30,065 nt of DNA, from positions 1 to 30,065 of the forward strand of contig JAYUGC010000096.1 in the NCBI GenBank assembly GCA_043767805.1, given 5' to 3'. Shown one piece after another: positions 9,736 to 25,592 of the stretch. The stretch is from Pseudomonadota bacterium (GTDB lineage Bacteria > Bdellovibrionota > FAC87 > UBA2466). Position numbers and translations under genes: made by a program. Below the pieces are notes generated by a model. The model saw only the letters and a list, made by a program, of their open reading frames with translations. It searched no databases and was not told the origin of the DNA. How positions within the stretch are numbered: position 1 is the first letter of the stretch; every line of letters begins with the position of its first letter.

Positions 9736-10671
9736 ATGAAAGCGCCTATCCCCCCTTTGCTTTGGACCGCAGTCGCCTTGAGCACCGCCCTTTGCCTCCT
9801 TGGGGCGGAGGGATCCCCGGAAGCGTTCGACGAGGTCCATTTTGGGATAAATCCCGGCGCCCGGTTGCTCGCAGTCACGGTCGCCGCACAGGGAAATCTT
9901 TGGCGGCTCTGGCCGGAAGAAGTGAAAGCCGAGCATAAAAAGGGCGAATCTGAGTACGTCCTCTCCTACGTGACGGACAATTCCCCCATTCGGCAAATCA
10001 CCGCGGCCAGCGCCGACAAGAGCCTCACCGAGGCTTGTCGCCAAGAAGCCCGGCGACTGAACCAAGCGCCCGGGACCCCGGTTACCGACGATAAAATCGT
10101 GACGACCGTGTACGTGCCGGTGGAAGAAGGTTCGCCCACTCGCCTCTCCGCCCGCGCCCTGGAAGGCTTGAGAATCGTGGATGTCCGTCCACTAGACGCC
10201 ACTGCCTTCTCGACGAACGCCAAAGACCTGGAGCTGGAAAGCTGGACGCGAGCAGTTTACTTGAAGGTGAGCTACCAAGGAACCGAAAAGCGAGCCATCG
10301 GTCCTTCCGACATCGTCGTCACCGGCGATCCCATAAAGGGGGAGTACCAAGTCTCCCTCCAAAAAGCCGGCAAAGCCGCCTTGACCCAACTCGCGGCCGA
10401 CGGCGCGCTCTCCGCCGAATGCGCCAAAGCGCTCCTCGCCACGAAGTCGGCCTCGGCTGCTTCGAAGCCGGCGCCATCGGGCCCCCCGAAACTCGGTTTT
10501 AGCCTCTTCAGCGGCCTACGAAGCGTCAGTAGCTTTTTGAATTTCAAACGCTTGCTGCCCTCCACGCACACTGCCATCGTGCTCCTGTCCATTCCGGAGA
10601 GCGCCCCTCGCACCCTGAGCGTGCAAACCCCGAAGGGCGTCACCCTCCAGGAGCTAGGCTCCATAGACTAA
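9736..10671 (+). CDS. Secreted hypothetical protein with an internal two-fold repeat (paralog 1)
   Basis: Signal-like MKAPIPPLLWTAVALSTALCLLGA. Clear similarity to the next gene. ATG 9721 is an alternative start. Confidence 0.75.
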   Translation: MKAPIPPLLWTAVALSTALCLLGAEGSPEAFDEVHFGINPGARLLAVTVAAQGNLWRLWPEEVKAEHKKGESEYVLSYVTDNSPIRQITAASADKSLTEACRQEARRLNQAPGTPVTDDKIVTTVYVPVEEGSPTRLSARALEGLRIVDVRPLDATAFSTNAKDLELESWTRAVYLKVSYQGTEKRAIGPSDIVVTGDPIKGEYQVSLQKAGKAALTQLAADGALSAECAKALLATKSASAASKPAPSGPPKLGFSLFSGLRSVSSFLNFKRLLPSTHTAIVLLSIPESAPRTLSVQTPKGVTLQELGSID

Positions 10672-10766: not shown

Positions 10767-11585
10767 ATGTTTGGAATGAAACTGAGCCTAGGGCTCGCTA
10801 GCTGCTTCTCTTTCCTAGCGCTCGCGGCGCCGGAATTTACCGAGATTCATTTTTCCGCGCCTCCCGGCCCCGGTGTTCTCGCGGTGACCGTTCTCACGCG
10901 CGAGCCGGCCTGGCGTTTGTTTCCCGAAGACGTGAAAATCGAGCACACCAAAAAATCGATGGAGTACTTGCTGAGCTACGACGTGAGTAAGTCCGTGCAA
11001 GCTCTGCTTCTCGCAGCGAGCAACAAGAAGGAAACCACCGAGGCGTGCAAAGCCGAGCTGAAGGCTCTCTTGTCCGCGCCCACCGAGGCGATTTCCGACG
11101 ATAAGCTCACGACCACGATCTATATCGTTTTGGACGAAGAGCACCCCGAGCGGCTCACGGTCAGCATGAAAGGCGATCTCAAATTGTTGAGTGCCGAGCC
11201 TCTCAGCGCGGCGACTTCCGAGATGCAACCTTGGACGCGCGCGGTGTCCGTGAAGCTCAGCTACTCCGCGGGTTACAGCATCAGTTACGGCGTGTCCGAT
11301 CTCATCGTTACGGAAGGGGCCGCGAAGGGCACCTTCCAGATTGAGACGCAAAGAACGGGTCTTGCCGCGCTAAAAAACTACATCGCCGACGGCCGCATCT
11401 CCCCACTTTGCGCTGAAGCTCTCGACCAGGGCTATTGGGCGCTCGAAGGGGATAAAACCGAGCCCAAAAATCGGTCCGAGAAGTCGATCGTCTTGGTCAT
11501 TCCCATGCCGAAGGAAGTTCCTTTGAAAATCGACATGCGACCGGCCGCGGGCTTTGCCGTAGAGAGCGTCCAGCCGCTCGAATAA
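10767..11585 (+). CDS. Secreted hypothetical protein with an internal two-fold repeat (paralog 2)
   Basis: AAGGGG SD before ATG 10767 and a signal peptide ending FLALA. Aligns to paralog 1 (LAVTV...WRLxPExVKxEHxK...EYxLSY; WTRAVxxKxSY). Confidence 0.78.
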   Translation: MFGMKLSLGLASCFSFLALAAPEFTEIHFSAPPGPGVLAVTVLTREPAWRLFPEDVKIEHTKKSMEYLLSYDVSKSVQALLLAASNKKETTEACKAELKALLSAPTEAISDDKLTTTIYIVLDEEHPERLTVSMKGDLKLLSAEPLSAATSEMQPWTRAVSVKLSYSAGYSISYGVSDLIVTEGAAKGTFQIETQRTGLAALKNYIADGRISPLCAEALDQGYWALEGDKTEPKNRSEKSIVLVIPMPKEVPLKIDMRPAAGFAVESVQPLE

Positions 11586-11647
11586 AGGCCCGGGCCCTGG
11601 CCCACTCGCCTTGTCATAGCCTGCCAAATACATAAGAATCATCGGAG

Positions 11648-12526
11648 ATGAACCCGACTCTCGCTGAGTGGCTGAACCTGACTTTGCGCTGGATGCACAT
11701 CGTGGCGGGTATTTCCTGGATCGGAAGTTCCTTCTACTTCATGTGGCTCGATAGCCATCTGGAACCGGCTAACAAAGCCACGCCCAATGTCGCGGGTCAC
11801 CTTTGGATGGTTCATAGCGGCGGCTTCTACCGGGTGGAAAAACGCTATCTCGCCGCGGGTGAAGTGCCTTCCAATCTGCACTGGTTCAAATGGGAAGCGG
11901 CGTTCACCTGGCTCACGGGACTCTGCCTTTTGGTCGTCGTGTACTACCTGGGCGGCATCATGGTGGATGCCTCGACCTCGTCGCTTTCGGAAGGCTCGGC
12001 CGCGGGCATCGGCGTGCTCCTTCTCGTCGTGTCTTGGCTCGTCTACGATCAGCTTTGGGTCTTACTCGGTAACCAGCCGAAAATCGCGACCGCCCTTTCC
12101 TGCGCGCTACTCATGGGACTCAACTACGGGCTCACCCAAATTTTTACAGGGCGCGCGGCGTACCTGCACGTCGGTGCGGTTCTGGGAACGCTCATGGTCG
12201 CTAACGTCTGGATGCGTATTCTCCCGGCTCAGCGGCAGATGATCGCGGCCACGCAAAAAGGCGAGACGCGCGACATGACGCTCGCTCACCGCGCGAAGGC
12301 GCGCTCGGTGCACAATAACTACGTCACCCTGCCGGTCATCTTCATCATGATCAGCAATCATTTTCCCAGTACGTACGGTCACGAGTACAACTGGGCGGTT
12401 CTGACGGTACTGATGGCTTGCGGGGCGGCGATCCGCCATTACATCAACGTGCAAAGCCGCAAAGCGCTTTGGCTCGCCGTTGCCGCAGGAATTGCGATGA
12501 TTGCTTTGGGGTACGTCACCCGATGA
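11648..12526 (+). CDS. puuD: Urate hydroxylase PuuD-type membrane domain, without the C-terminal cytochrome c
   Basis: LRWMHIVAGISWIGSSFYF, LWMVHSGGFY, LHWFKWEAAFTWLTG and RSVHNNYVTLPVIFIMISNHFP. About 8 TM helices; first gene of the allantoin operon. Confidence 0.9.
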   Translation: MNPTLAEWLNLTLRWMHIVAGISWIGSSFYFMWLDSHLEPANKATPNVAGHLWMVHSGGFYRVEKRYLAAGEVPSNLHWFKWEAAFTWLTGLCLLVVVYYLGGIMVDASTSSLSEGSAAGIGVLLLVVSWLVYDQLWVLLGNQPKIATALSCALLMGLNYGLTQIFTGRAAYLHVGAVLGTLMVANVWMRILPAQRQMIAATQKGETRDMTLAHRAKARSVHNNYVTLPVIFIMISNHFPSTYGHEYNWAVLTVLMACGAAIRHYINVQSRKALWLAVAAGIAMIALGYVTR

Positions 12527-13893
12527 GCGATAGCGAGACCTATCCTTTCGTTCTGCGTAGCCGGCGAGTGCTGCTGTCTCCGACCCAAGCGCCGTCCCCC
12601 GCCGCGCTTACCATCGAGGACGGCAAAATCACCCAAGTTCAGAATTTCGATCTCACGACGTCGCATGCTTTACTCGATGTGGGCGACAGTCTCGTCATGG
12701 CGGGTATCGTCGATACTCACGCGCATATCAACGAGCCCGGGCGCACCGAGTGGGAAGGCTTTCGTACCGCGACTCGCGCGGCGGCAGCCGGCGGCATCAC
12801 CACCGTACTCGACATGCCTCTCAACTCGATACCGCCGACAACGACGCTCGCCAATCTGAAGACGAAAGCCGCGGCGGCGGCCGGCCAGTGCACCATCGAT
12901 TACGGTTTTTGGGGCGGGCTCATTCCGGGCAACACCGCCGAGCTCGAGCCCATGATCCGCAAGGGCATCTGGGGCTTCAAAGCGTTTCTCTGCGAGTCGG
13001 GAGTCGACGAGTTTCCGATGGCGCGCGAAGCGGATTTGCGCGCAGGCATGGCGGTACTCGCCAAGCATGGCGTGCCGCTACTCGTGCACGCGGAACTTTG
13101 CGGGACGGCTCCGGCTTCCGCGTCGTCTCCGCGCAGTTACCAAGGGTATCTGGACTCTCGTCCCGCAGCCTGGGAAGTGGAAGCCATTCGCTTGATGATT
13201 CGTTTGGTGCGGGAGACCAACTGCGCGGTGCACATCGTGCATCTTTCCGCGGCTGATGCCTTGCCCGACCTGACTAAGGCTCGCTCGGAAGGACTTCCCA
13301 TCACGGTGGAAACTTGCCCGCATTATTTAGCGCTCAAAGCCGAAGACATTGCCGATGGCGCCACGCATTTCAAATGCGCGCCGCCCATTCGGGACGCATC
13401 GAATCAGGATCGCCTTTGGGCCGCGCTGGCTGCCGGGCACATCGATCAGATCGTGTCGGATCACTCCCCTTGCACGCCAAAACTCAAGGAGATCGAGAGC
13501 GGTCACTTCGAGAAGGCCTGGGGAGGAATCGCTGGCCTTCAGTTCAGTCTGCCGGTAGTTTGGACCGAGATGCGGCGGCGAAAACTCCCTGTTCAGAATT
13601 TGGCCCGTTGGATGAGCCTCGCCCCGGCCCGAATGGCCGGTCTCGAGGAGAAGAAAGGCACTTTGGCTCCCGGCAAAGATGCCGACCTCGTCGTCTGGGA
13701 CCCGGACGCCGCTTTCGTCCCCACGCCCGAAACCGTTTTGCACCGGCACTCGCTCACTCCCTACTCGGGCCGCACTTTATATGGACGAGTGGAGATGACG
13801 TTTTTGCGAGGAGTTTGTATTTTCGAGGAGGGCCGGTTCCCGGGCGAACCCCTGGGCCGAGAAGTGTCTCGTTCGGCGGAGGAAAGTAGATGA
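12523..13893 (+). CDS. allB: Allantoinase (amidohydrolase superfamily)
   Basis: DTHAHINEPGRTEWEGF, GGITTVLDMPLNSIP, VHAE, HIVHLS, ETCPHYL, FKCAPPIR, VSDHSP, AWGGI. ATGA overlap with puuD fixes the start at 12523. Confidence 0.95.
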   Translation: MSDSETYPFVLRSRRVLLSPTQAPSPAALTIEDGKITQVQNFDLTTSHALLDVGDSLVMAGIVDTHAHINEPGRTEWEGFRTATRAAAAGGITTVLDMPLNSIPPTTTLANLKTKAAAAAGQCTIDYGFWGGLIPGNTAELEPMIRKGIWGFKAFLCESGVDEFPMAREADLRAGMAVLAKHGVPLLVHAELCGTAPASASSPRSYQGYLDSRPAAWEVEAIRLMIRLVRETNCAVHIVHLSAADALPDLTKARSEGLPITVETCPHYLALKAEDIADGATHFKCAPPIRDASNQDRLWAALAAGHIDQIVSDHSPCTPKLKEIESGHFEKAWGGIAGLQFSLPVVWTEMRRRKLPVQNLARWMSLAPARMAGLEEKKGTLAPGKDADLVVWDPDAAFVPTPETVLHRHSLTPYSGRTLYGRVEMTFLRGVCIFEEGRFPGEPLGREVSRSAEESR

Positions 13894-14897
13894 GCTCGAC
13901 GCGGGTAGTGATGGCGGAATTGACGGACTTAGCCTCGGCCCGGGTAGGCGGAAAAGCGCTCGCCACCAACGACGAGTTCTTCGCCGAAAAACAAAATCTC
14001 ATCAAGCCCGAGCCTGCGATCTTTCTTCCGGACAAATATGTCGATACCGGCAAGTGGATGGACGGCTGGGAGAGCCGCCGGAAGCGCGGGCCCGGCCATG
14101 ACTGGTGCGTCTTGGAGCTTGGCATCGCAGGCGTCATTCAAGGGCTCGATGTCGACACGTCTCACTTCACGGGAAATTTTCCGGAAGCCTGCTCGGTCGA
14201 GGCGGGCATCATGCCGGCGGGCAGCGACGCCGTGATGGAATGGAAAGAGATCCTTCCCAAGTCTTTGCTTCAAGGCGATAGCCACAATTATTTCGCCGTG
14301 AGCAACAGTAGTCGCTGGACCCATGTGCGACTCAATATTTTTCCGGACGGCGGCGTCGCGCGACTTCGCGTGTACGGGCGCTCGGCGCCGGACTGGGCGA
14401 AGCTCAAAGCGGCGGGCGGGCTCATCGATCTCGCGGCCATCGGCAATGGCGGCAAGGGGCTAACGTGTAGCGATCGGTTCTACAGCCATCCGGACAATCT
14501 CATCATGCCCGAGCGCTCCAAAAACATGGGCGACGGCTGGGAGACGAAACGCCGGCGCGGGCCCGGCCACGACTGGGTCATCCTTCGCTTGGGCGCCGCG
14601 GGCCGCATCAAGAAAATTGAAGTGGATACGAATCACTATAAAGGCAACTTCCCCGAGAGCTGTTCTTTGGAAGGTTGCCGTCTCGGAGAAGGCCCCGATC
14701 TTCTCCCTGGTGATTTCCGCGACCGCAAGGACATCACCTGGGAAGAGATTCTTCCGCGCACCGCTTTAAAGGCCGACACCCGGCACCATTTCGAGAAAGA
14801 GCTTTGCCCGGGCTCGACGATTTTCGATCACGTTCGTTTGCAAACCTATCCAGATGGCGGCATCAGCCGCCTGCGGGTTTTAGGAGAACTCCCATGA
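13890..14897 (+). CDS. alc: Allantoicase
   Basis: Duplicated allantoicase repeat: DGWESRRKRGPGHDW / DGWETKRRRGPGHDW, DTSHFTGN / DTNHYKGN, PDGGVARLRV / PDGGISRLRV. Confidence 0.96.
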   Translation: MSSTRVVMAELTDLASARVGGKALATNDEFFAEKQNLIKPEPAIFLPDKYVDTGKWMDGWESRRKRGPGHDWCVLELGIAGVIQGLDVDTSHFTGNFPEACSVEAGIMPAGSDAVMEWKEILPKSLLQGDSHNYFAVSNSSRWTHVRLNIFPDGGVARLRVYGRSAPDWAKLKAAGGLIDLAAIGNGGKGLTCSDRFYSHPDNLIMPERSKNMGDGWETKRRRGPGHDWVILRLGAAGRIKKIEVDTNHYKGNFPESCSLEGCRLGEGPDLLPGDFRDRKDITWEEILPRTALKADTRHHFEKELCPGSTIFDHVRLQTYPDGGISRLRVLGELP

Positions 14898-15406
14898 CTT
14901 CGAAGCTTGTGGCGCTCAATCGCTATTGGAAAGCCGACGCGGAGACCGAATTTCTCCGCTGCTGCCGCTCGAAGCGGTGGGCCGAGGGCATGGCGGCGGC
15001 GCGGCCTTTCGATACGGACGCGGCTCTCTACAGCGCCTCCGACAAAATCTGGGCTTCACTCGGCAAGGAAGACTGGCTCGAAGCCTTCAAGGGACACCCT
15101 AAGATTGGACAAACTCCTACTCCGACCAAAGAGACCCGCTCGACGGCGTCCTGGGCCCGGGAAGAACAAGCGGGCACGCGCACATCTTCGGAAGCGGTCT
15201 TGAAAGATTTGGCGGCGGGGAACGAAACGTACGAAAAGAAGTTCGGCTTCGTGTTCCTGGTGTGCGCGACGGGCAAGTCGGGCGACGAAATGCTCAAAAT
15301 CTTGAACGACCGTCTCGGCAACACGGTGGAGGCGGAGCTGGAAATCGCCGCGAAAGAACAAGCGAAGATCACCCGCCTCAGACTGGAGAAGTTACTCGGC
15401 ACATGA
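14894..15406 (+). CDS. uraD: OHCU decarboxylase
   Basis: AARPF, EAFKGHPKIG, EQAG, YEKKFGFVFLVCATG, EQAKITRLRL. ATGA overlap with alc. Confidence 0.95.
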   Translation: MTSKLVALNRYWKADAETEFLRCCRSKRWAEGMAAARPFDTDAALYSASDKIWASLGKEDWLEAFKGHPKIGQTPTPTKETRSTASWAREEQAGTRTSSEAVLKDLAAGNETYEKKFGFVFLVCATGKSGDEMLKILNDRLGNTVEAELEIAAKEQAKITRLRLEKLLGT

Positions 15407-15756
15407 AAGACCGCAGCCCCATCACCACGCATATTTTGGATGTGAACCGAGGCAAGCCCGCGGCCAAAGTCGCGGTGACTTTGGAGCACCGCACTTCGGC
15501 TTCGGAGTGGAAGGTGCTGGGCCGGGGCGAGACCAACGCCGACGGCCGAGCCGAAGATCTTCTCGCCAAAGGGCACACCGTGACAGTCGGCGTGTACCGG
15601 CTGACGTTTGCGACGGCCGAGTATTTCGCGGGTCTCGGCACCAAGAGCTTTTATCCTTTTGTAACGGTCGCGTTCGAGATTACCGATCCTGCTCAGCACC
15701 ATCACGTCCCTCTGCTTTTGAGCGGACACGGCTACAGTACTTACCGAGGAAGTTGA
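15403..15756 (+). CDS. uraH: 5-hydroxyisourate hydrolase (transthyretin-like)
   Basis: ITTHILD...GKPA, TNADGR, HHHVPLLLS, and C-terminal YRGS. ATGA overlap with uraD. Confidence 0.96.
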   Translation: MKDRSPITTHILDVNRGKPAAKVAVTLEHRTSASEWKVLGRGETNADGRAEDLLAKGHTVTVGVYRLTFATAEYFAGLGTKSFYPFVTVAFEITDPAQHHHVPLLLSGHGYSTYRGS

Positions 15757-15759
15757 ATC

Positions 15760-17115
15760 ATGAAGCGAGTGCTCACTCCGGAATCCCTCAAAGGGATTAC
15801 CGACGGCCTTGAGAAGGCCAACCAGCATTTTAACGAAGTGTACCCGGGCGAGCCGGTGGGCATTCAGCCCGTGCATACGATTTACGGCGGCGCGCACTTA
15901 TTCGCCCCGGGCATCGTAAAAAAGTTCGGCCAGAGCGCGCTCCAAACTTTGAGCGACAACGCGCCCAACGGGGCCGCGCTAGGTAAAGCGCTCGCGGGCT
16001 CGCAGTACGATGAGGCCATCTGGTCGAAGGTGTACGAGCGCATGGTGAGGAAGCTTAAAGTCGCGCCGATCGAAGACTTCCGCATCGATTTCGAGGACGG
16101 TTACGGCAGCCGCTCCGACGAGGAAGAGGACGGCCACGCCATCGCCGCCGCCAAAGCGGTCGCGCAGGAGATGAAGGCGAACGCGCTTCCTCCAAATATC
16201 GGCATTCGCATCAAGTCGTTCAGCGGCCCGTGCCTCGCGCGCGGCGTGCGTACTTTAGATCTCTTTTTGGGAACTCTCCTTGAGGAAGGTTCAGGCAAAT
16301 TGCCCGAGGGCTTCGTCATCACGTTGCCGAAGGTGACCATCGCCGAGCAACCCAAGGCGCTCGCTCAGATGTTGACCGTTCTCGAGAAGAAGCATGTCCT
16401 CACCGCGAACTCGCTAAAGTTCGAGTTCATGGTGGAGACCACCCAGTCTGTGATCGGTGAGGACGGCACTTGTCCTCTGCGCAGCTTCGTGGAAGCAGGC
16501 GAAGGGCGCTGCGTGGGCGCGCATCTCGGGACTTATGACTATACGGCTTCACATAACATCACCGCCGCTCACCAGCGCATGGGCCACCCGGCTTGCGATT
16601 TCGCAAAGCAGATGATGAAGGTCGCCCTCACCGGTACCGGAATATTGCTATCGGATGGCGCGACAAACATCATTCCCGTCGGCCCGCACAAGGCGACCGC
16701 CGACAAGCCACTCACTCCCGCGCAAAAGCGAGACAACGAGCAGGCCGTTCACCGTGCTTGGAAGATTAGTTACGGACATATCCGTTACTCGCTCATTACT
16801 GGCTACTATCAAGGGTGGGATCTCCACCCAGCGCAGTTGCCGGTGCGGTACGCGGCGGTCTATGCGTTTTTTCTCGAAGCTCTAGCCCCGGCGACCGAGC
16901 GCTTGCGTGGGTTCGTCGAGAAAGCGGCCCGGGCCACTTTGCTCGGCGACGTGTTTGACGACGCAGCTACCGGTCAGGGACTGCTGAACTTCTTCCTGCG
17001 GGGCTTAAGTTGCGGCGCTCTCACCGAAGAGGAGGCCAAGGCCACGGGCCTCACCCTCGAAGAGATTCAAGGAAGGGCTTTCTTGCCGATCCTCGAGAGC
17101 CGCAGCAAACGCTAA
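15760..17115 (+). CDS. Uncharacterised CitE/HpcH-HpaI aldolase-citrate lyase fold enzyme (DUF6986-like)
   Basis: CitE-like motif order IDFEDG, IRIK, TLPKV, MVET, LGTYDY, LHPAQL, plus PVHTIYGGAHLF. Starts 3 nt after uraH. The DUF name is from memory. Confidence 0.8.
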   Translation: MKRVLTPESLKGITDGLEKANQHFNEVYPGEPVGIQPVHTIYGGAHLFAPGIVKKFGQSALQTLSDNAPNGAALGKALAGSQYDEAIWSKVYERMVRKLKVAPIEDFRIDFEDGYGSRSDEEEDGHAIAAAKAVAQEMKANALPPNIGIRIKSFSGPCLARGVRTLDLFLGTLLEEGSGKLPEGFVITLPKVTIAEQPKALAQMLTVLEKKHVLTANSLKFEFMVETTQSVIGEDGTCPLRSFVEAGEGRCVGAHLGTYDYTASHNITAAHQRMGHPACDFAKQMMKVALTGTGILLSDGATNIIPVGPHKATADKPLTPAQKRDNEQAVHRAWKISYGHIRYSLITGYYQGWDLHPAQLPVRYAAVYAFFLEALAPATERLRGFVEKAARATLLGDVFDDAATGQGLLNFFLRGLSCGALTEEEAKATGLTLEEIQGRAFLPILESRSKR

Positions 17116-20457: not shown

Positions 20458-20976
20458 ATGTGTCATCGTGGCGCTAAATTCTTTTTTGCACTTCTACTGG
20501 GGGCGGTACTCGCTCCTAGCTTAACTCGGGCTGGCGATAGGCCGGAAGCCGAGCCAGATCAGATTCAGCGTTCGGCGCCCAATCCCAAGTCTGACGAGAT
20601 TTATCTTGTCGTCAGATCCCGGCAGCCTTTCAGAGTCGTAAAGACTATCGATTTACCCAGTCGAGTCTATTTGAAGAAGTCGGTCATGCTGGGGAAATAT
20701 CAGGCCTTCATTACAACTCGACGAGGTACACTGACAACGCCCGAAAGATATCTCCTGACTGGTTCCGTGGTCCGCGGAGATCGGTTTGGCGGGGAAAAAG
20801 AAGCCTTTTACATTCTCGCTGAGGATGGCGGGTGGAAGAAGCTCCCGGGTTCCGGACGTTCCGAACGCTATTTCGTTAAGGATGATAATAAACTGGGTGC
20901 GGAGTCATCGATGACTCCCAGCGAGCAAGAGAGCGCACCGTCGTCCTCCGTCGCCTCCACTACAAACACCCATTAA
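20458..20976 (+). CDS. Secreted hypothetical protein
   Basis: Signal peptide MCHRGAKFFFALLLGAVLAPSLTRA, a beta-rich core and a Ser-rich tail overlapping the convergent gene. Confidence 0.7.
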   Translation: MCHRGAKFFFALLLGAVLAPSLTRAGDRPEAEPDQIQRSAPNPKSDEIYLVVRSRQPFRVVKTIDLPSRVYLKKSVMLGKYQAFITTRRGTLTTPERYLLTGSVVRGDRFGGEKEAFYILAEDGGWKKLPGSGRSERYFVKDDNKLGAESSMTPSEQESAPSSSVASTTNTH

Positions 20977-22246
20977 AAGCGTTCGACCTCAACCGGAACA
21001 ACTCATCCGGCCAAACCGACCCGTCGTAAGGAAAGACTAAGTCCTTATCCTGAAGGTCGCGGCTCAACGAAGCCTGCACGTTCTTCTGGGCGGCTCGTTT
21101 GAACTCCGTATCCTCCGCCACCTGATGCTTCCTCAAAATCTCCTGATGCAGCTCCACCTTCACGAAGCGCATCTTCACAATCGCCTCACGCAGCTCGGCA
21201 TTCGCGTTGCGCCACTGACGACGATACTCCTTCACCAGCACGCCCTTTAACCACGCCTGATTGGCCGCCAAGGCCTGCGCGCTCTCCGTCCAACCCAACG
21301 CCTTCACCGCCGCCACTTCCCTCTCCCGGCGCTCCAAGCCCCTCTCGACCATCGCCGTGTACCAATCGAGCTCCGGCGGCCGAGGCGGCGCGGCCAGGCG
21401 CGGCGCTTCTTCCATCGGCTTCGCCCATTTCTCGTTCACGCGGACGAAAGCGTCGAAATCCTTCTTCGAGTCCTCGTAATGACAAAGCTTCAAATTCGAA
21501 ATGGCGCGCACCACGTAAATCTCAGGCGCGAGCTTGTCCTCGAAAAACGGCAAAGTCAGTGACGCCAAGGTCCCCCGCAACCGCTCCGAGTTTCCTTTGC
21601 GCAGCCAAACCCACAAAAGCTCTTCCTGCGCCTTCAAGTACGAATTCGTACTGACCGGCACGAGCTCGTACCACTTCTCGGCTTCGTCCAAATCGCCGTA
21701 TTGATAATAAAGCCGCGCGAGCTGCAGAGTATTTTCCGAAAGCGTCTCCGCTTGAACCTTCTTGCCGGAAGCCGCCGCCGCTTCCACTTCCGTGCCGACC
21801 AAGCTAATCGCGGCCCGCACCATACCGTTACGCGCCATCGCCAAAGAGACCGAGCGCGCGAGCCGACCCCGCCAAGGATGCAACTTCGGCAAAGCGTCGA
21901 GAGATTCCTTCGCCGCAAGCCCGCGCCGAAACGACGTCCAAGCTTTCAAATGCCCGTACAAAGGCGTCTTCGGAAGCGCCGACACGATCTCTTCCTGCGC
22001 CGGCGTGAACAGAACCCCATTCTCTTCTAAAAGCGCGTCGATTCCCTTCTCGATCTCCGCCTCCAGAGCCGTCCCCTGCCCGCTCTTCTTCTTCAGGCTG
22101 ACGAGCCACTCATCGACAAACGTCTGCGCAAGCTGCTTGTTCCACAAACAAGCCAACCGCTCCGACCCCTGACAAAAAGCATCCGCCTGCGCTCCTTGTA
22201 CCTGAAACGCCAGACCGCAAAGGAGCAAAGAAAGGGACTTAAGCAC
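20960..22246 (-). CDS. Exported TPR protein, GltC-like
   Basis: GTG start after GGAGG and signal ending GAQA. TPR helices LQLARLYYQYGDLDEAEKWY, PEIYVVRAISNLKLCHY, and C-terminal FPYDGSVWPDEL, which resembles the GltC W-x-DEL tail. Confidence 0.72.
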   Translation of the reverse strand: MLKSLSLLLCGLAFQVQGAQADAFCQGSERLACLWNKQLAQTFVDEWLVSLKKKSGQGTALEAEIEKGIDALLEENGVLFTPAQEEIVSALPKTPLYGHLKAWTSFRRGLAAKESLDALPKLHPWRGRLARSVSLAMARNGMVRAAISLVGTEVEAAAASGKKVQAETLSENTLQLARLYYQYGDLDEAEKWYELVPVSTNSYLKAQEELLWVWLRKGNSERLRGTLASLTLPFFEDKLAPEIYVVRAISNLKLCHYEDSKKDFDAFVRVNEKWAKPMEEAPRLAAPPRPPELDWYTAMVERGLERREREVAAVKALGWTESAQALAANQAWLKGVLVKEYRRQWRNANAELREAIVKMRFVKVELHQEILRKHQVAEDTEFKRAAQKNVQASLSRDLQDKDLVFPYDGSVWPDELFRLRSNAFNGCL

Positions 22247-22934
22247 CCTCACCTCCAAAAACGAAGCCCAAAGAAGCATGGCCGACGAAATGATTCACAC
22301 GAGACGGACCGGTGCGAAGCGCCTCTTGAAAGTTATAATCTTTCAGGCCCACGCGGACACTCCAATGCCGGCCGAACCAAAATGCAAATCCCGCATCGGC
22401 GACAACCGCGAGTGAGTTCTGCTGTCCGATGCCGTTATCAGTGCGTACCATGCCGGCGCCCAACGCCCAGTACTGATCGAAGTAAAAGACCGAGTCCATG
22501 GAAAGCCGGAACTTTCCGTAAAAGAGATGGTACCCAAACGTCAGATCGCTTCTGAACTTAACGACTGCGACATCCGGGAAAATCTTCTCGTTATTCCATA
22601 GACGGTTGCCTTCCGCGCTAAGTGACGTAAAGACATGCGCGGCATGAAGACCCGTATAAAAACGATCCGTGAAGTAGAACCGCAAGTCCCCATGAATCTC
22701 ATCAGACGTCACGAAGCTCGAAGGGCTGAAGTTTTTGGAGCCGCCGATGTCGAGCTCGATCCGATGCTTTAACGACGAGTACCTTGATTGCGCCGCGTAA
22801 AACCGTTCCGCCGGAACCGGCGCGGTCTTCGTGTTGTCTTCGAGACGCAAGGTTTTGAGCTCCGTCTCGAGCGACGTCGTGGCCTGAACCGTCCAAGGCA
22901 AAGCCAAAGCGAGCCAGAGTAATGACAGTTTCAT
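22239..22934 (-). CDS. Outer-membrane beta-barrel of the myxobacterial/Bdellovibrio type (GltA/GltB-like)
   Basis: Signal ending TVQA, amphipathic aromatic-rich strands, and family-like motifs KHRIEL and FYGKF...FYFDQYWALGAG. Adjacent to the GltC-like gene. Confidence 0.78.
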   Translation of the reverse strand: MKLSLLWLALALPWTVQATTSLETELKTLRLEDNTKTAPVPAERFYAAQSRYSSLKHRIELDIGGSKNFSPSSFVTSDEIHGDLRFYFTDRFYTGLHAAHVFTSLSAEGNRLWNNEKIFPDVAVVKFRSDLTFGYHLFYGKFRLSMDSVFYFDQYWALGAGMVRTDNGIGQQNSLAVVADAGFAFWFGRHWSVRVGLKDYNFQEALRTGPSRVNHFVGHASLGFVFGGEGA

Positions 22935-23365
22935 TAACGCAACCTCTCCGATTTCGACCCCTCAAAAACCACGAGCACCGCCTTGCGGGTCACTACGTCC
23001 AAAGGATCGGAGCTCGCCCGCAAGTGAATCCGAATGGGGTACGTCGCGTATCCCGAAGACCCTGCCGCGGCTTTTGCCGAGCCGGCCGTTGGGCGCCAGC
23101 AGATTCGGTTTTGAGCAAATGTCGCCGACCCGGGAAGTCCTTCGACGGTCACGACCGCCGCGTTCTCCGGAACCTTGGCGAAGATGGCATATTCCGCCAG
23201 CTCCCCTTCGCGGAAGGCCATGACCTCCTCGAACCCCAGCTGATAGTCGTCGGGATTCTGACTCGGCTTGGCCGACATCAGGTTTCCCTTCGGGAACTCC
23301 AGCTGCTTGCCGCAACCCGCAACGACGATGGAAACGAAAAGCAATCCTAGGAATGATGCCTTCAC
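22934..23365 (-). CDS. Small lipoprotein with a putative Ig-like domain
   Basis: GTG 23365 after AAGGAG, lipobox VAGC, and VEGLPGSATF...ICWRPT resembling putative-Ig (He_PIG) repeats. Confidence 0.75.
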   Translation of the reverse strand: MKASFLGLLFVSIVVAGCGKQLEFPKGNLMSAKPSQNPDDYQLGFEEVMAFREGELAEYAIFAKVPENAAVVTVEGLPGSATFAQNRICWRPTAGSAKAAAGSSGYATYPIRIHLRASSDPLDVVTRKAVLVVFEGSKSERLR

Positions 23366-23387
23366 GGTTTCTCTCCTTACCTGAGGA

Positions 23388-25592
23388 TCAAGGCGCAGAC
23401 TGATAATGGACTTCTGCTTCTTCCTTGAGCCCCGTGGCAAATGACAGGTCCTGGAACACGATTGAATTGTCGCTAGCTTCGTAAATCCAATAGCCGCCCA
23501 CGCCGATGAGCCCCTCGGGGAGCTGCTGGCCTTTGTAGAACACCTTGATCGTGCCCGGGAGCGGCACGTTGGGCAGCATGATCTTTGGCGCGAACACGGC
23601 GCTCAAAATGATCTGCTTGGCTAAATCGAGTAGCGACTTGCCGAAGTCCTTGTCGCAAATGGGAAAGACTTTGCCCTTTGTTTCCGAAACGAACTCCTCG
23701 TACTTGCTGCCCTTGTAATCCCAGGCGTCGTCGGTGTTCTTACATCCCAAGTCCTTGGCGCCGAAGATGCCGTAGCCGAATACCGTCTTCAGATCGCCCT
23801 TTTTGCGCTCGAGATAACGCAGGAACTCATAGGCGGTCTCGGAGCTCTGCTCCGGAGCATCGGTAACGGTGATGATGGCAAGTCCCGCGCCGGGACGCAG
23901 GAAGTTCGGATTCTCGTCGAGCGTCTTCATTACGGGCTTAAACATCTGCTCGACGCTCGAGCCGCCGATTCCGAGTTTCTTAACGCCGTCGTTAAACGTC
24001 GCTACCGGCTGGGGCGAAAGATGCGACAGCACGTCCAAAGGCGTGAATCCGAGATAAGGCTTTTCCCTAACGTCGGTCGAGATAAGGCCCATCTTCCATT
24101 TCAGCGCCGTGATCTTCGTGTACTCGTTCATGAAGGCATCCATGTTATCCTTCACGGCCTGCTGATAGGGCGACATGCTCGCGCTATTGTCGATGACCCA
24201 AAGCATGTCGAGATCGTTGACGAGGGAGACGTCCTTCACGGTCTTGGTGATCACGTGCGACACGCTGATGCCGTAGCTCGCCTGACACGTCGCCTTCCCA
24301 AACGGACTGGTGACTTCGCCCTTGGCGATGAACTTACCCGAAGCTTTGGGATGGATGACGATTTTACCGGCGGGAGCCGTAATGGCCGTCTGATCGATTT
24401 TTGCCGAGACCACCCCGCCCGTCGAAGTCAGAGACAGCGTCACTTCCGCGCCAGATGCCACCAAAGGAGGCGTCGCCACCAAAGTGCAGCTCGGCGCGTC
24501 CACCACTTCGTACCTACCTTCGCACTTAGCCGAGCCACCTGGTCCGGTGACTTCGCCGACAGAAGTGAAGGAGCCGATGTTCATCGCCTGAATCATCTTC
24601 TGACCGACAGGCGAAGCAACACTCATGCCGTCGATGGTGCTCGCCGTGATATTGCCGACTCCGGTCAGAGTGAAAGTGAGAGAATTGCCCAAGGCCGTGG
24701 GAGTCGGCGCAGCGACAAGCTGGCAGCTCGGCGGCGGATCGAGAACTTGATAGTTCGCGACACAAGTTGCCTTACCGCCGGGGCCTTGCACCGCGGCCGT
24801 GACCGTGAACTTTCCCGGCAAAACGGGCTGAAGCGTCGCCTGGCCTTTAGGAAACGAAACGGAGTTGCCTTCAATGGTGGCGCCCGTGATTTTCCCGTTT
24901 CCTTCGACCTGTACGTCGAGCTTACCGCCCAAAGGCAATACGGCGGGGGAGACCGAGACTACGCACGTGGGCGCGCGGTCTCTGACCTCATAGGTCGTCT
25001 GACAAGTTCCCGTTCCTCCAGGACCGATGACCGTCGCGCTGATGGGGAAAACCCCCGCGGTATCCGTAGGAAGTTTCGCTTCGGCAATCGGAAAGGCCAA
25101 TTTGATGTGCCCGATGGCGGCGTCCGTCACTTTACCCGAGGTCTTAAGCTTTGCGACGAGCGGATCGCCCACCAGCGTGGAAGTAGGGCTCGCTTCGAGT
25201 ACGCAGGTCGGAGCGCGCTCCCGGATCTCATAAGAGAGCGAACAGCTGCTCGCGCCGCCGGGGCCGCGCACGATGGCTTCCGCGCGAAATCTACCCGCCG
25301 ATTGCGGCGTCCATTCCTTAAAGGTTTGATTGCGGGCGAGCGGCGTTTCATCGAGCCGCACTTCCGTTGCGTTGCCTGTCACTTCCACCGACAGACGTAG
25401 CGAATCGCCGACAAAAGGATCGGAAGCCGAAACCGAAAGACGGCAGGTGGGGCGTTTTTCTACCACGGGGGACTCTTGAACGCTGGCTTGCCAAGGATAA
25501 AGGAAGGGGGCTTGCCGGTTACATCCACTAAGAACGCATACCCAGAGAACCGCGTAGGTAAACCCGGATGCGGACCTAAGAAGCTGGCGTAT
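23388..25592 (-). CDS. Surface lipoprotein adhesin: five Cys-paired Ig-like repeats plus a C-terminal VWA domain (CglB-like)
   Basis: VWA MIDAS DMLWVIDNSASM and LAIITVTD. The frame extends upstream of the track start (25466) through a signal peptide with lipobox LSGC. The start is placed at ATA 25592 and is uncertain. Confidence 0.8.
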   Translation of the reverse strand: MRQLLRSASGFTYAVLWVCVLSGCNRQAPFLYPWQASVQESPVVEKRPTCRLSVSASDPFVGDSLRLSVEVTGNATEVRLDETPLARNQTFKEWTPQSAGRFRAEAIVRGPGGASSCSLSYEIRERAPTCVLEASPTSTLVGDPLVAKLKTSGKVTDAAIGHIKLAFPIAEAKLPTDTAGVFPISATVIGPGGTGTCQTTYEVRDRAPTCVVSVSPAVLPLGGKLDVQVEGNGKITGATIEGNSVSFPKGQATLQPVLPGKFTVTAAVQGPGGKATCVANYQVLDPPPSCQLVAAPTPTALGNSLTFTLTGVGNITASTIDGMSVASPVGQKMIQAMNIGSFTSVGEVTGPGGSAKCEGRYEVVDAPSCTLVATPPLVASGAEVTLSLTSTGGVVSAKIDQTAITAPAGKIVIHPKASGKFIAKGEVTSPFGKATCQASYGISVSHVITKTVKDVSLVNDLDMLWVIDNSASMSPYQQAVKDNMDAFMNEYTKITALKWKMGLISTDVREKPYLGFTPLDVLSHLSPQPVATFNDGVKKLGIGGSSVEQMFKPVMKTLDENPNFLRPGAGLAIITVTDAPEQSSETAYEFLRYLERKKGDLKTVFGYGIFGAKDLGCKNTDDAWDYKGSKYEEFVSETKGKVFPICDKDFGKSLLDLAKQIILSAVFAPKIMLPNVPLPGTIKVFYKGQQLPEGLIGVGGYWIYEASDNSIVFQDLSFATGLKEEAEVHYQSAP
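24264..25454 (-). repeat. Five tandem ~80-aa intragenic repeats, P(T/S)C...G...G(P)GG...C...Y
   Basis: Units begin RPTC, APTC, APTC, PPSC, APSC and end GPGGASSCSLSY, GPGGTGTCQTTY, GPGGKATCVANY, GPGGSAKCEGRY, SPFGKATCQASY. Boundaries are approximate. Confidence 0.9.

Follow-up and report, generated by a model that had tools for sequence, protein, structure and literature searches.

A malate-synthase-like protein of zebrafish (Danio rerio) has been identified as a ureidoglycolate lyase (EC 4.3.2.3) by Dembech et al. (2023; PMC10120013). It is described there as an AceB paralogue of ~62 kDa in which the acetyl-CoA site has been lost and Trp365 replaced by Met, and which is active without added metal. 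That paper treats this lyase group as restricted to eukaryotes and proposes, as a possibility, a bifunctional lyase/malate synthase ancestor. AllA, which carries out the same step, is nickel-dependent according to PMC3793230. In this study, we analysed a 30,065-nt stretch of DNA (hereafter the window) in which a urate/allantoin operon ends with a gene for a protein of Pfam family DUF6986, a candidate ureidoglycolate lyase.

Operon position and the pathway gap in the host

The operon consists of six genes on the plus strand. The first five encode a puuD-type membrane urate oxidase (11648..12526; 292 aa, recognised by PF06181 only), allantoinase (allB, 12523..13893; TIGR03178, 572.9 bits against a cut-off of 357.85), allantoicase, which converts allantoate to ureidoglycolate and urea (alc, 13890..14897; TIGR02961, 427.5 bits against a cut-off of 277.9), OHCU decarboxylase (uraD, 14894..15406; Pfam, with TIGR03180 over its cut-off) and HIU hydrolase (uraH, 15403..15756; Pfam, with TIGR02962 over its cut-off). 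The sixth is the DUF6986 gene (15760..17115), an intact ORF of 451 aa. The linkage described in the initial annotation was confirmed from the sequence: ATGA overlaps were found at all four junctions from puuD to uraH, and the DUF6986 gene starts 3 nt past uraH (the uraH stop codon, ATC, then ATG), preceded by a Shine-Dalgarno-like GAGGAAG in the 3′ end of uraH (15746..15752, plus strand). The GC and GC3 contents of the DUF6986 gene (0.60 and 0.74) match those of the other five genes (0.59-0.61 and 0.69-0.74). At the 3′ border of the operon, an HRDC-domain gene on the opposite strand converges with the DUF6986 gene. A promoter and terminator scan of the window gave no useful signal; the sigma-70-like TTGTCA-17-AAGAAT before puuD (11611..11639, plus strand) was not above chance (one found, against 1.8 +/- 1.1 in shuffled sequences). 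As had also been claimed, no allA, gcl or malate synthase gene was found in the window when 31 ORFs were scanned against Pfam and 27 against NCBIfam.

Several other features of the window were recorded. The puuD product is the membrane domain alone, without the CxxCH motif of a cytochrome c, and a second, partial puuD-like match lies on contig C108 of the host genome. Just upstream of the operon are two tandem paralogues (9736-10671 and 10770-11585), which share 40% identity across 222 aa; their starts resemble signal peptides, and neither matched Pfam or NCBIfam. On the minus strand, 20960-25466 encodes a GltC-like protein, an outer-membrane beta-barrel and a VWA/MIDAS-like protein (Pfam/NCBIfam), a gene run typical of predatory or gliding bacteria.

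The host genome (100% complete, 2.8% contamination) contains a canonical malate synthase A gene (aceB) beside the isocitrate lyase gene (aceA), on a contig other than that of the window. A profile search of this genome revealed no AllA, and there was no gcl over cut-off and no AllC/AllE-like match. Within the scope of these searches, the known step without a gene in the host is ureidoglycolate cleavage. Neither urease nor, over cut-off, urea carboxylase was found; without urease, the last purine steps would yield carbon and not nitrogen, and a route complete as far as urea, with neither of these enzymes found, suggests that purines serve this bacterium for carbon or energy. Two FAH-family proteins of the host, examined as possible Burkholderia-type lyases, were discarded, given that they are encoded on other contigs and that PMC3793230 doubts that assignment. 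Elsewhere in the host (C36:50000-69000), xanthine dehydrogenase genes directly follow a pyrimidine-breakdown run comprising dihydropyrimidinase, an aminotransferase, a PreA-like protein and an NCS1 permease.

Family, predicted fold and conserved residues

The window protein matched DUF6986 (PF22484) with 579.3 bits (gathering cut-off, 27) over residues 17-441 and profile positions 1-405 of 408. The enzyme had been called uncharacterised; it belongs to this named Pfam family. An NCBIfam scan returned no family name for it. DUF6986 is large: 581 clusters, formed at 50% identity, score E up to 1e-30, and all 7999 scored candidates passed; current database labels for its members include 'phosphoenolpyruvate kinase', 'citrate lyase beta subunit' and 'aldolase'. 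Judged from listings and abstracts in the openly available literature, no paper naming or describing DUF6986 was found, and the accessible text of a 2026 review (PMC13751858) has no mention of 'DUF'.

A PDB search with the single window protein gave no significant match, and a PDB profile search gave a weak match to malyl-CoA lyase (E 0.014). An AlphaFold model (pLDDT 87, pTM 0.84) was most similar to CLYBL (5vxc; Z 25.3, rmsd 2.5, 285 aligned residues) and to malyl-CoA lyases (Z 24.4 for 5ugr, rmsd 4.5 over 292 residues, and 23.6), followed by haloarchaeal malate synthase (22.7), CitE (22.0), malate synthases A and G (19.9 and 18.7) and HpcH aldolase (16.2). Foldseek agreed with a CitE-type fold (E 8e-9 to 3qqw). 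The protein is thus predicted to be a TIM barrel of the CitE/malyl-CoA-lyase/malate-synthase type with a C-terminal helical domain, which supports the CitE fold first proposed for it. No match was obtained to PF01274 or TIGR01344 (the AceB of the same genome, used as a control, scored 775.6), to PF04115 (AllA/DAL3), whose fold is not the predicted TIM barrel, or to PF03328 (HpcH/HpaI), though some DUF6986 relatives do match PF03328. In profile-profile comparison, the probability for DUF6986 was 98.5 against malyl-CoA lyase and 96.2 against AceB. DUF6986 resembles an enzyme type already described within an established superfamily, but by the tests run it stands outside the AllA, AceB and eukaryotic lyase groups. 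On a FastTree tree, the clade of the window protein and an actinobacterial-type sister clade separate with SH-like values of 99 and 90, and one sister-clade member (P0252) is a fusion of DUF6986 to UraD.

Among 145 diverse DUF6986 sequences, D110 and R150 were kept in all, E112 in 144, and D113, E226 and D260 in 143 each. Together with D401, these positions align with the catalytic and Mg residues of malyl-CoA-lyase-like and AceB profiles; the corresponding residues and their roles are named in PMC3832036. The MVET and GTYDY motifs, earlier singled out as Mg-binding, are present and hold the predicted ligands E226 and D260. The putative lid acid was placed by alignment and not by coordinates: D401 is the aligned residue (D in 127 and E in 14 of the 145), and its neighbour D400 is conserved as D in 139 of them. 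The lid motif is DDAAT in the window clade and DEPAT in the sister clade, and the other active-site residues are common to both. Y259, immediately before the Mg Asp, is Tyr in 100% of both clades. The Ala that PMC3832036 reports at this position of malyl-CoA lyases (Ala167/Ala183) is thus absent from the window protein, and the Tyr found in its place is a bulky residue, as is Trp277 of AceB in the same account. The positions of Arg276 and Met330 of E. coli AceB correspond to T258 and A301; across DUF6986 the Arg276 position is T or V, and the Met330/Pro231 position is Ala or Ser. The Trp365 position of AceB is kept as W353. Of the two substitutions that mark the eukaryotic lyase (Arg276 and Trp365), DUF6986 has the first and not the second. 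DUF6986 was probably recruited independently of that lyase.

Residues of the CoA site were mapped by profile alignment, without superposition, to those named in PMC3112382. In 75 distinct window-clade sequences, conservation was 98% for Y42, 97% for R/K94 and 100% for K98, L355 and P357, and position 95, which also maps to a CoA-site position, was hydrophobic (M/V). By this alignment, the CoA-site positions look retained in the window clade. Sister-clade members encoded next to aceB were looser at P357 (68%) and R94 (60%), with K98 at 100%.

Gene neighbourhoods and co-occurrence

The 80 closest GTDB loci, from Acidobacteriota, Bacteroidota, Myxococcota, Verrucomicrobiota and others, were examined for neighbouring genes. 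A urate or allantoin gene was present within 8 kb in 61 of the 80 loci, and in 32 of the 45 that were at least 15 kb long. uraH was found near DUF6986 in 57 loci, uraD in 54, and alc and allB in 49 each; in two others (L045 and L066), AllC and AllE take the place of alc. Nineteen loci had no purine gene nearby. None of the 80 contained allA, aceB or gcl, and a profile search detected no AllA in any of 80+80+6+9 DUF6986 loci. The same profile found AllA in 7/7 control loci, four of which had been used in building it.

Fifty of these 80 genomes, chosen for taxonomic spread and long loci and mostly MAGs of unstated completeness, were searched in full. Full-length AllA was found in 4 (with 6 further weak partial matches), malate synthase in 13, urease in 16 and gcl in none. 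Malate synthase was therefore absent from 37, both malate synthase and urease from 27, and both full-length AllA and malate synthase from 37; urea carboxylase over cut-off was found in 0/5 carriers tested. One genome (G043, locus L075) is unpublished, and without it the counts are 60/79 loci with a purine gene and 12/49 genomes with malate synthase. In two Acidobacteriota loci (L089:1438-1935 and L090:1387-1845), a distant AllA-like protein is encoded away from purine genes, between genes that we take, from our own reading of the sequences, to be nuoD and nuoH.

The sister clade was sampled through 6 Actinomycetota plasmid records and 80 metagenome loci, 29 of the latter at least 9 kb long. 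The plasmid arrangements included xdh-guaD-DUF6986-allE in Tsukamurella, uricase-xdh-DUF6986-alc-puuE in Nocardia, DUF6986 directly before ureABC in Gordonia, and a puuE-like gene, DUF6986 and NCS1 in Paenarthrobacter. Two of the six plasmid records had no purine gene nearby. Records from Streptomyces and Nonomuraea carry the gene away from purine genes; in one Streptomyces locus (L133:7976-11248), DUF6986 follows etfB-etfA. In the metagenome loci, allE was found in 46, aceB in 36 (25 distinct at 90% identity), IclR in 34, uricase in 22 and allA in none. aceB was nearly always directly upstream of DUF6986, and the commonest order was aceB-DUF6986-allE, often with gcl and glycerate kinase; NCBIfam cut-offs were passed by 5/5 aceB and 3/3 gcl genes tested. 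Because glyoxylate sinks are present in these loci, the lyase alone is missing from them. The position of DUF6986 between a maker of ureidoglycolate and a user of glyoxylate is the strongest argument for a lyase, and we would expect the window and sister clades to share one reaction.

In 181 Myxococcota genomes (counts not corrected for kinship), DUF6986 was found in 67, alc in 63, AllA in 42 and malate synthase in 118. These totals leave out 16 genomes with DUF6986 matches at E 1e-18 or weaker, as well as 2 weak AllA matches; when 11 of the dropped DUF6986 matches were examined, 8 were readable proteins and 6 were clearly malyl-CoA-lyase-like. alc was present in 48/67 DUF6986 carriers versus 15/114 non-carriers. 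An anti-correlation with allA, as anticipated in the initial annotation, appeared at the level of loci but not of genomes. The 63 alc genomes included 32 with both DUF6986 and AllA, 16 with DUF6986 alone, 10 with AllA alone and 5 with neither (p=1), which gives no genome-level exclusion. At 64 alc loci, on the other hand, DUF6986 lay within 10 kb in 18 and AllA in 12, with both in 0 and neither in 34 (p=0.014, kinship uncorrected). One genome (G138) has two alc loci, one with DUF6986 and the other with AllA. At locus L098, the order is puuD-allB-alc-uraH-allA-aceB, so that allA-aceB fills the slot taken by DUF6986 in the window. The anti-correlation anticipated for malate synthase was replaced by co-occurrence (61/67 DUF6986 carriers versus 57/114 non-carriers, with genome size as a confounder). 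Nineteen of the 67 carriers lacked alc, and 5/5 of these that were tested also lacked allantoinase, allE and AllA; DUF6986 in these five is intact and under purifying selection (pairwise dN/dS 0.13-0.38).

A divergent malate-synthase-A-like protein (L093:4872-7325, L096:2-1663, L124:1518-3551 and L125:746-2782) is encoded by four (G077, G069, G060 and G085) of the five alc genomes that have neither AllA nor DUF6986. It is a protein of ~680 aa, with 25-27% identity to AceB, GWHD for GRWD and the CoA helix kept. In two genomes its gene lies within the alc cluster, and it is possibly a third solution for the ureidoglycolate step.

Among 301 Flavobacteriaceae genomes, requested at no less than 95% completeness, allantoinase was found in 10 and DUF6986 in 8, all among those 10 and always in the same operon. 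Seven of the eight pair DUF6986 with alc. The two allantoinase genomes without DUF6986 have no alc and carry instead a module of allE, a class V aminotransferase and two M20 amidohydrolases. In G313, this module occurs together with DUF6986. AllA was found in 0/10 and malate synthase in 1/10 of the genomes with allantoinase. Six of the seven genomes with alc and DUF6986 lacked malate synthase, those six also lacked urease (0/6 tested), and a close homologue of the class V aminotransferase was found in 0/5 tested. In these genomes, neither the urea nor the glyoxylate released by an enzyme that was only a lyase would have a known use. alc and DUF6986 move as a module, which fits a lyase and equally a lyase that supplies its own glyoxylate sink. 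Taken together, the 61/80 loci, the UraD fusion and the gain and loss with allantoicase in Flavobacteriaceae make the purine link of DUF6986 strong. In the three operons with allE and the aminotransferase (L231, L232 and L225), one of the two M20 amidohydrolases may be a bacterial counterpart of the plant-type ureidoglycolate amidohydrolase.

Candidate reactions and comparison with known systems

On the basis of operon position, family, predicted fold, conserved residues and neighbourhoods, from which we infer substrate, metal and reaction, we judge the chances about even that the window DUF6986 protein is a Mg-dependent ureidoglycolate lyase, converting (S)-ureidoglycolate to glyoxylate and urea. 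Ureidoglycolate (HOOC-CH(OH)-NH-CO-NH2) can be viewed as a nitrogen analogue of the malyl group (HOOC-CH(OH)-CH2-CO-SCoA), and the cleavage chemistry of malyl-CoA lyase would therefore release urea from it. In the proposed mechanism, E226 and D260 would hold Mg, which would bind the carboxylate and the hydroxyl, and E112 and D113 would hold waters. R150, with its orientation set by D110, would accept the proton of the hydroxyl and stabilise the carbonyl of urea. As when malyl-CoA lyase works in the direction of cleavage, the departing urea would receive a proton from D401 (or D400) of the C-terminal part. In the host, glyoxylate would then pass to the separate AceB.

DUF6986 follows both routes to ureidoglycolate, through alc (49/80), through AllC and AllE (L045 and L066), and beside allE (46/80 in the sister clade). 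With a host that lacks AllA but has aceB-aceA, the avoidance of AllA at the level of loci, the aceB-DUF6986-allE order and a eukaryotic precedent, a lyase is the best supported of the three functions initially offered. The Gordonia arrangement before ureABC and the changes at the Arg276 and Met330 positions of AceB also speak for it. Against a lyase only are the apparent retention of the CoA-site positions, the kept W353, the 19/80 window-clade loci and 2/6 plasmid records without a purine gene nearby, the many carriers without malate synthase, gcl and urease, the 32 myxobacteria that have both DUF6986 and AllA, and the five without an allantoin pathway.

A less probable alternative is a bifunctional enzyme, which would release urea and then condense the Mg-bound glyoxylate with acetyl-CoA to give malate (or malyl-CoA), and which would thus stand in for AllA as well as AceB. 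The window clade (DDAAT) would keep both activities, and the DEPAT clade, being mainly a lyase, would travel with aceB. Consistent with this are the absence of allA, aceB and gcl from all 80 window-clade loci, with allA and aceB together in the same slot at L098; the 37/50 carriers with neither full-length AllA nor malate synthase; the exchange, in Flavobacteriaceae, of alc and DUF6986 for a module in which a class V aminotransferase accompanies a second amidohydrolase; the tighter CoA site of the window clade compared with aceB-adjacent members (P357 100% versus 68%, position 94 97% versus 60%); and the separation of the two clades on the tree. It would also explain why DUF6986 is kept beside AllA in myxobacteria, and such an ancestor is what PMC10120013 proposes. 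However, both proteins tested in that paper were monofunctional, and no such enzyme is shown there; K98 is equally invariant in the aceB-adjacent clade, so that its conservation may be structural; promiscuous reductases or aminotransferases may remove glyoxylate; and the host genome has aceB. The window clade as a single-active-site ureidoglycolate-to-malate enzyme, a living example of the bifunctional ancestor of Dembech et al. beside a lyase-specialised sister clade, is offered as a tentative idea. If it is true, DUF6986 lets bacteria that have none of AllA, malate synthase, gcl and urease draw carbon from purines.

An enzyme confined to malate synthase or malyl-CoA lyase activity, comparable to yeast DAL7, is unlikely; ureidoglycolate would in that case decay spontaneously or be cut by an unrecognised enzyme. 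Yeast DAL7 is a precedent for a dedicated malate synthase copy in an allantoin cluster. The complete catalytic set, including by alignment the lid Asp, the closest similarity of the model being to CLYBL, malyl-CoA lyases and haloarchaeal malate synthase, the retention of the gene where no source of ureidoglycolate was found and in genomes beside AllA, and the bulky Y259 (like AceB Trp277, PMC3832036) would agree with this. Such an enzyme would nevertheless be redundant in the sister clade, since aceB is directly upstream there, often with gcl, and the lyase step would stay empty. Furthermore, AllA never adjoins DUF6986, yet it adjoins aceB at L098. The initial suggestion of a non-orthologous malate synthase is also weakened by the aceB of the host, by the 61/67 Myxococcota carriers with malate synthase (subject to the genome-size confounder) and by the 36/80 sister-clade loci with aceB. 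As a second activity, malate synthesis is plausible because the CoA-site positions look kept and 27/50 carriers lack malate synthase, gcl and urease. Another glyoxylate or ureide reaction (a glyoxylate-pyruvate aldol, a CoA thioesterase or detoxification of a urate-oxidation side product) is improbable. In its favour, the superfamily is promiscuous (PMC3832036), the lid residue of the sister clade is Glu, which malyl-CoA thioesterases also have there, and in several myxobacteria, as in the Streptomyces and Nonomuraea records, the gene lies apart from purine genes. Against it, DUF6986 accompanies the enzymes of both routes to ureidoglycolate, and HpcH-type aldolases fit less well (Z 16.2 and below, versus 22-25 for CitE and malyl-CoA lyase enzymes); the glyoxylate aldolase is the least supported option of the initial annotation.

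If the preferred reading, a ureidoglycolate lyase, is true, it gives a reaction to a large unannotated family (the 581 clusters noted above) and closes the last purine step in many soil and freshwater bacteria without AllA. The malate-synthase/CitE barrel would then have been recruited to cleave a C-N bond a second time, in bacteria and probably with no need for nickel.

Compared with the known systems, DUF6986 shares with the Danio rerio lyase the malate-synthase/CitE barrel, the association with allantoicase, a changed Arg276 position and the proposed reaction; it differs in being bacterial, in its length of 451 aa, in a profile that matches malyl-CoA lyase better than AceB, and in keeping W353 (Trp365) and, apparently, the CoA-site residues. 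With AllA/DAL3 (PF04115), it has in common the proposed reaction and the slot after allantoicase, whereas sequence and fold are unrelated (a 451-aa TIM barrel versus ~165 aa) and the predicted metal is Mg versus Ni. Malate synthases A, G and H (3cux, 1n8i and 3oyx) resemble it in fold (Z 18.7-22.7), in the lid motif (DDAAT, compared with EDAAT of AceB) and in a bulky residue before the Mg Asp. Unlike them, DUF6986 has no PF01274/TIGR01344 match, no N-terminal domain and changed Arg276 and Met330 positions, and it often adjoins a true aceB. The malyl-CoA lyase, CLYBL and CitE enzymes (5ugr, 4l9y, 4l7z, 5vxc and 1sgj) share its fold (Z 22-25), DxED, the Arg, the Mg Glu/Asp, W-x-x-H-P, a conserved Lys before strand 2 and, by alignment, the lid Asp. 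From these enzymes it is set apart by 15-18% identity, ~130 additional residues, with a helical insertion following strand 1, Tyr in place of the conserved Ala167, GWDLHP for KWAIHP, DGAT for DGP, and its place in purine operons.
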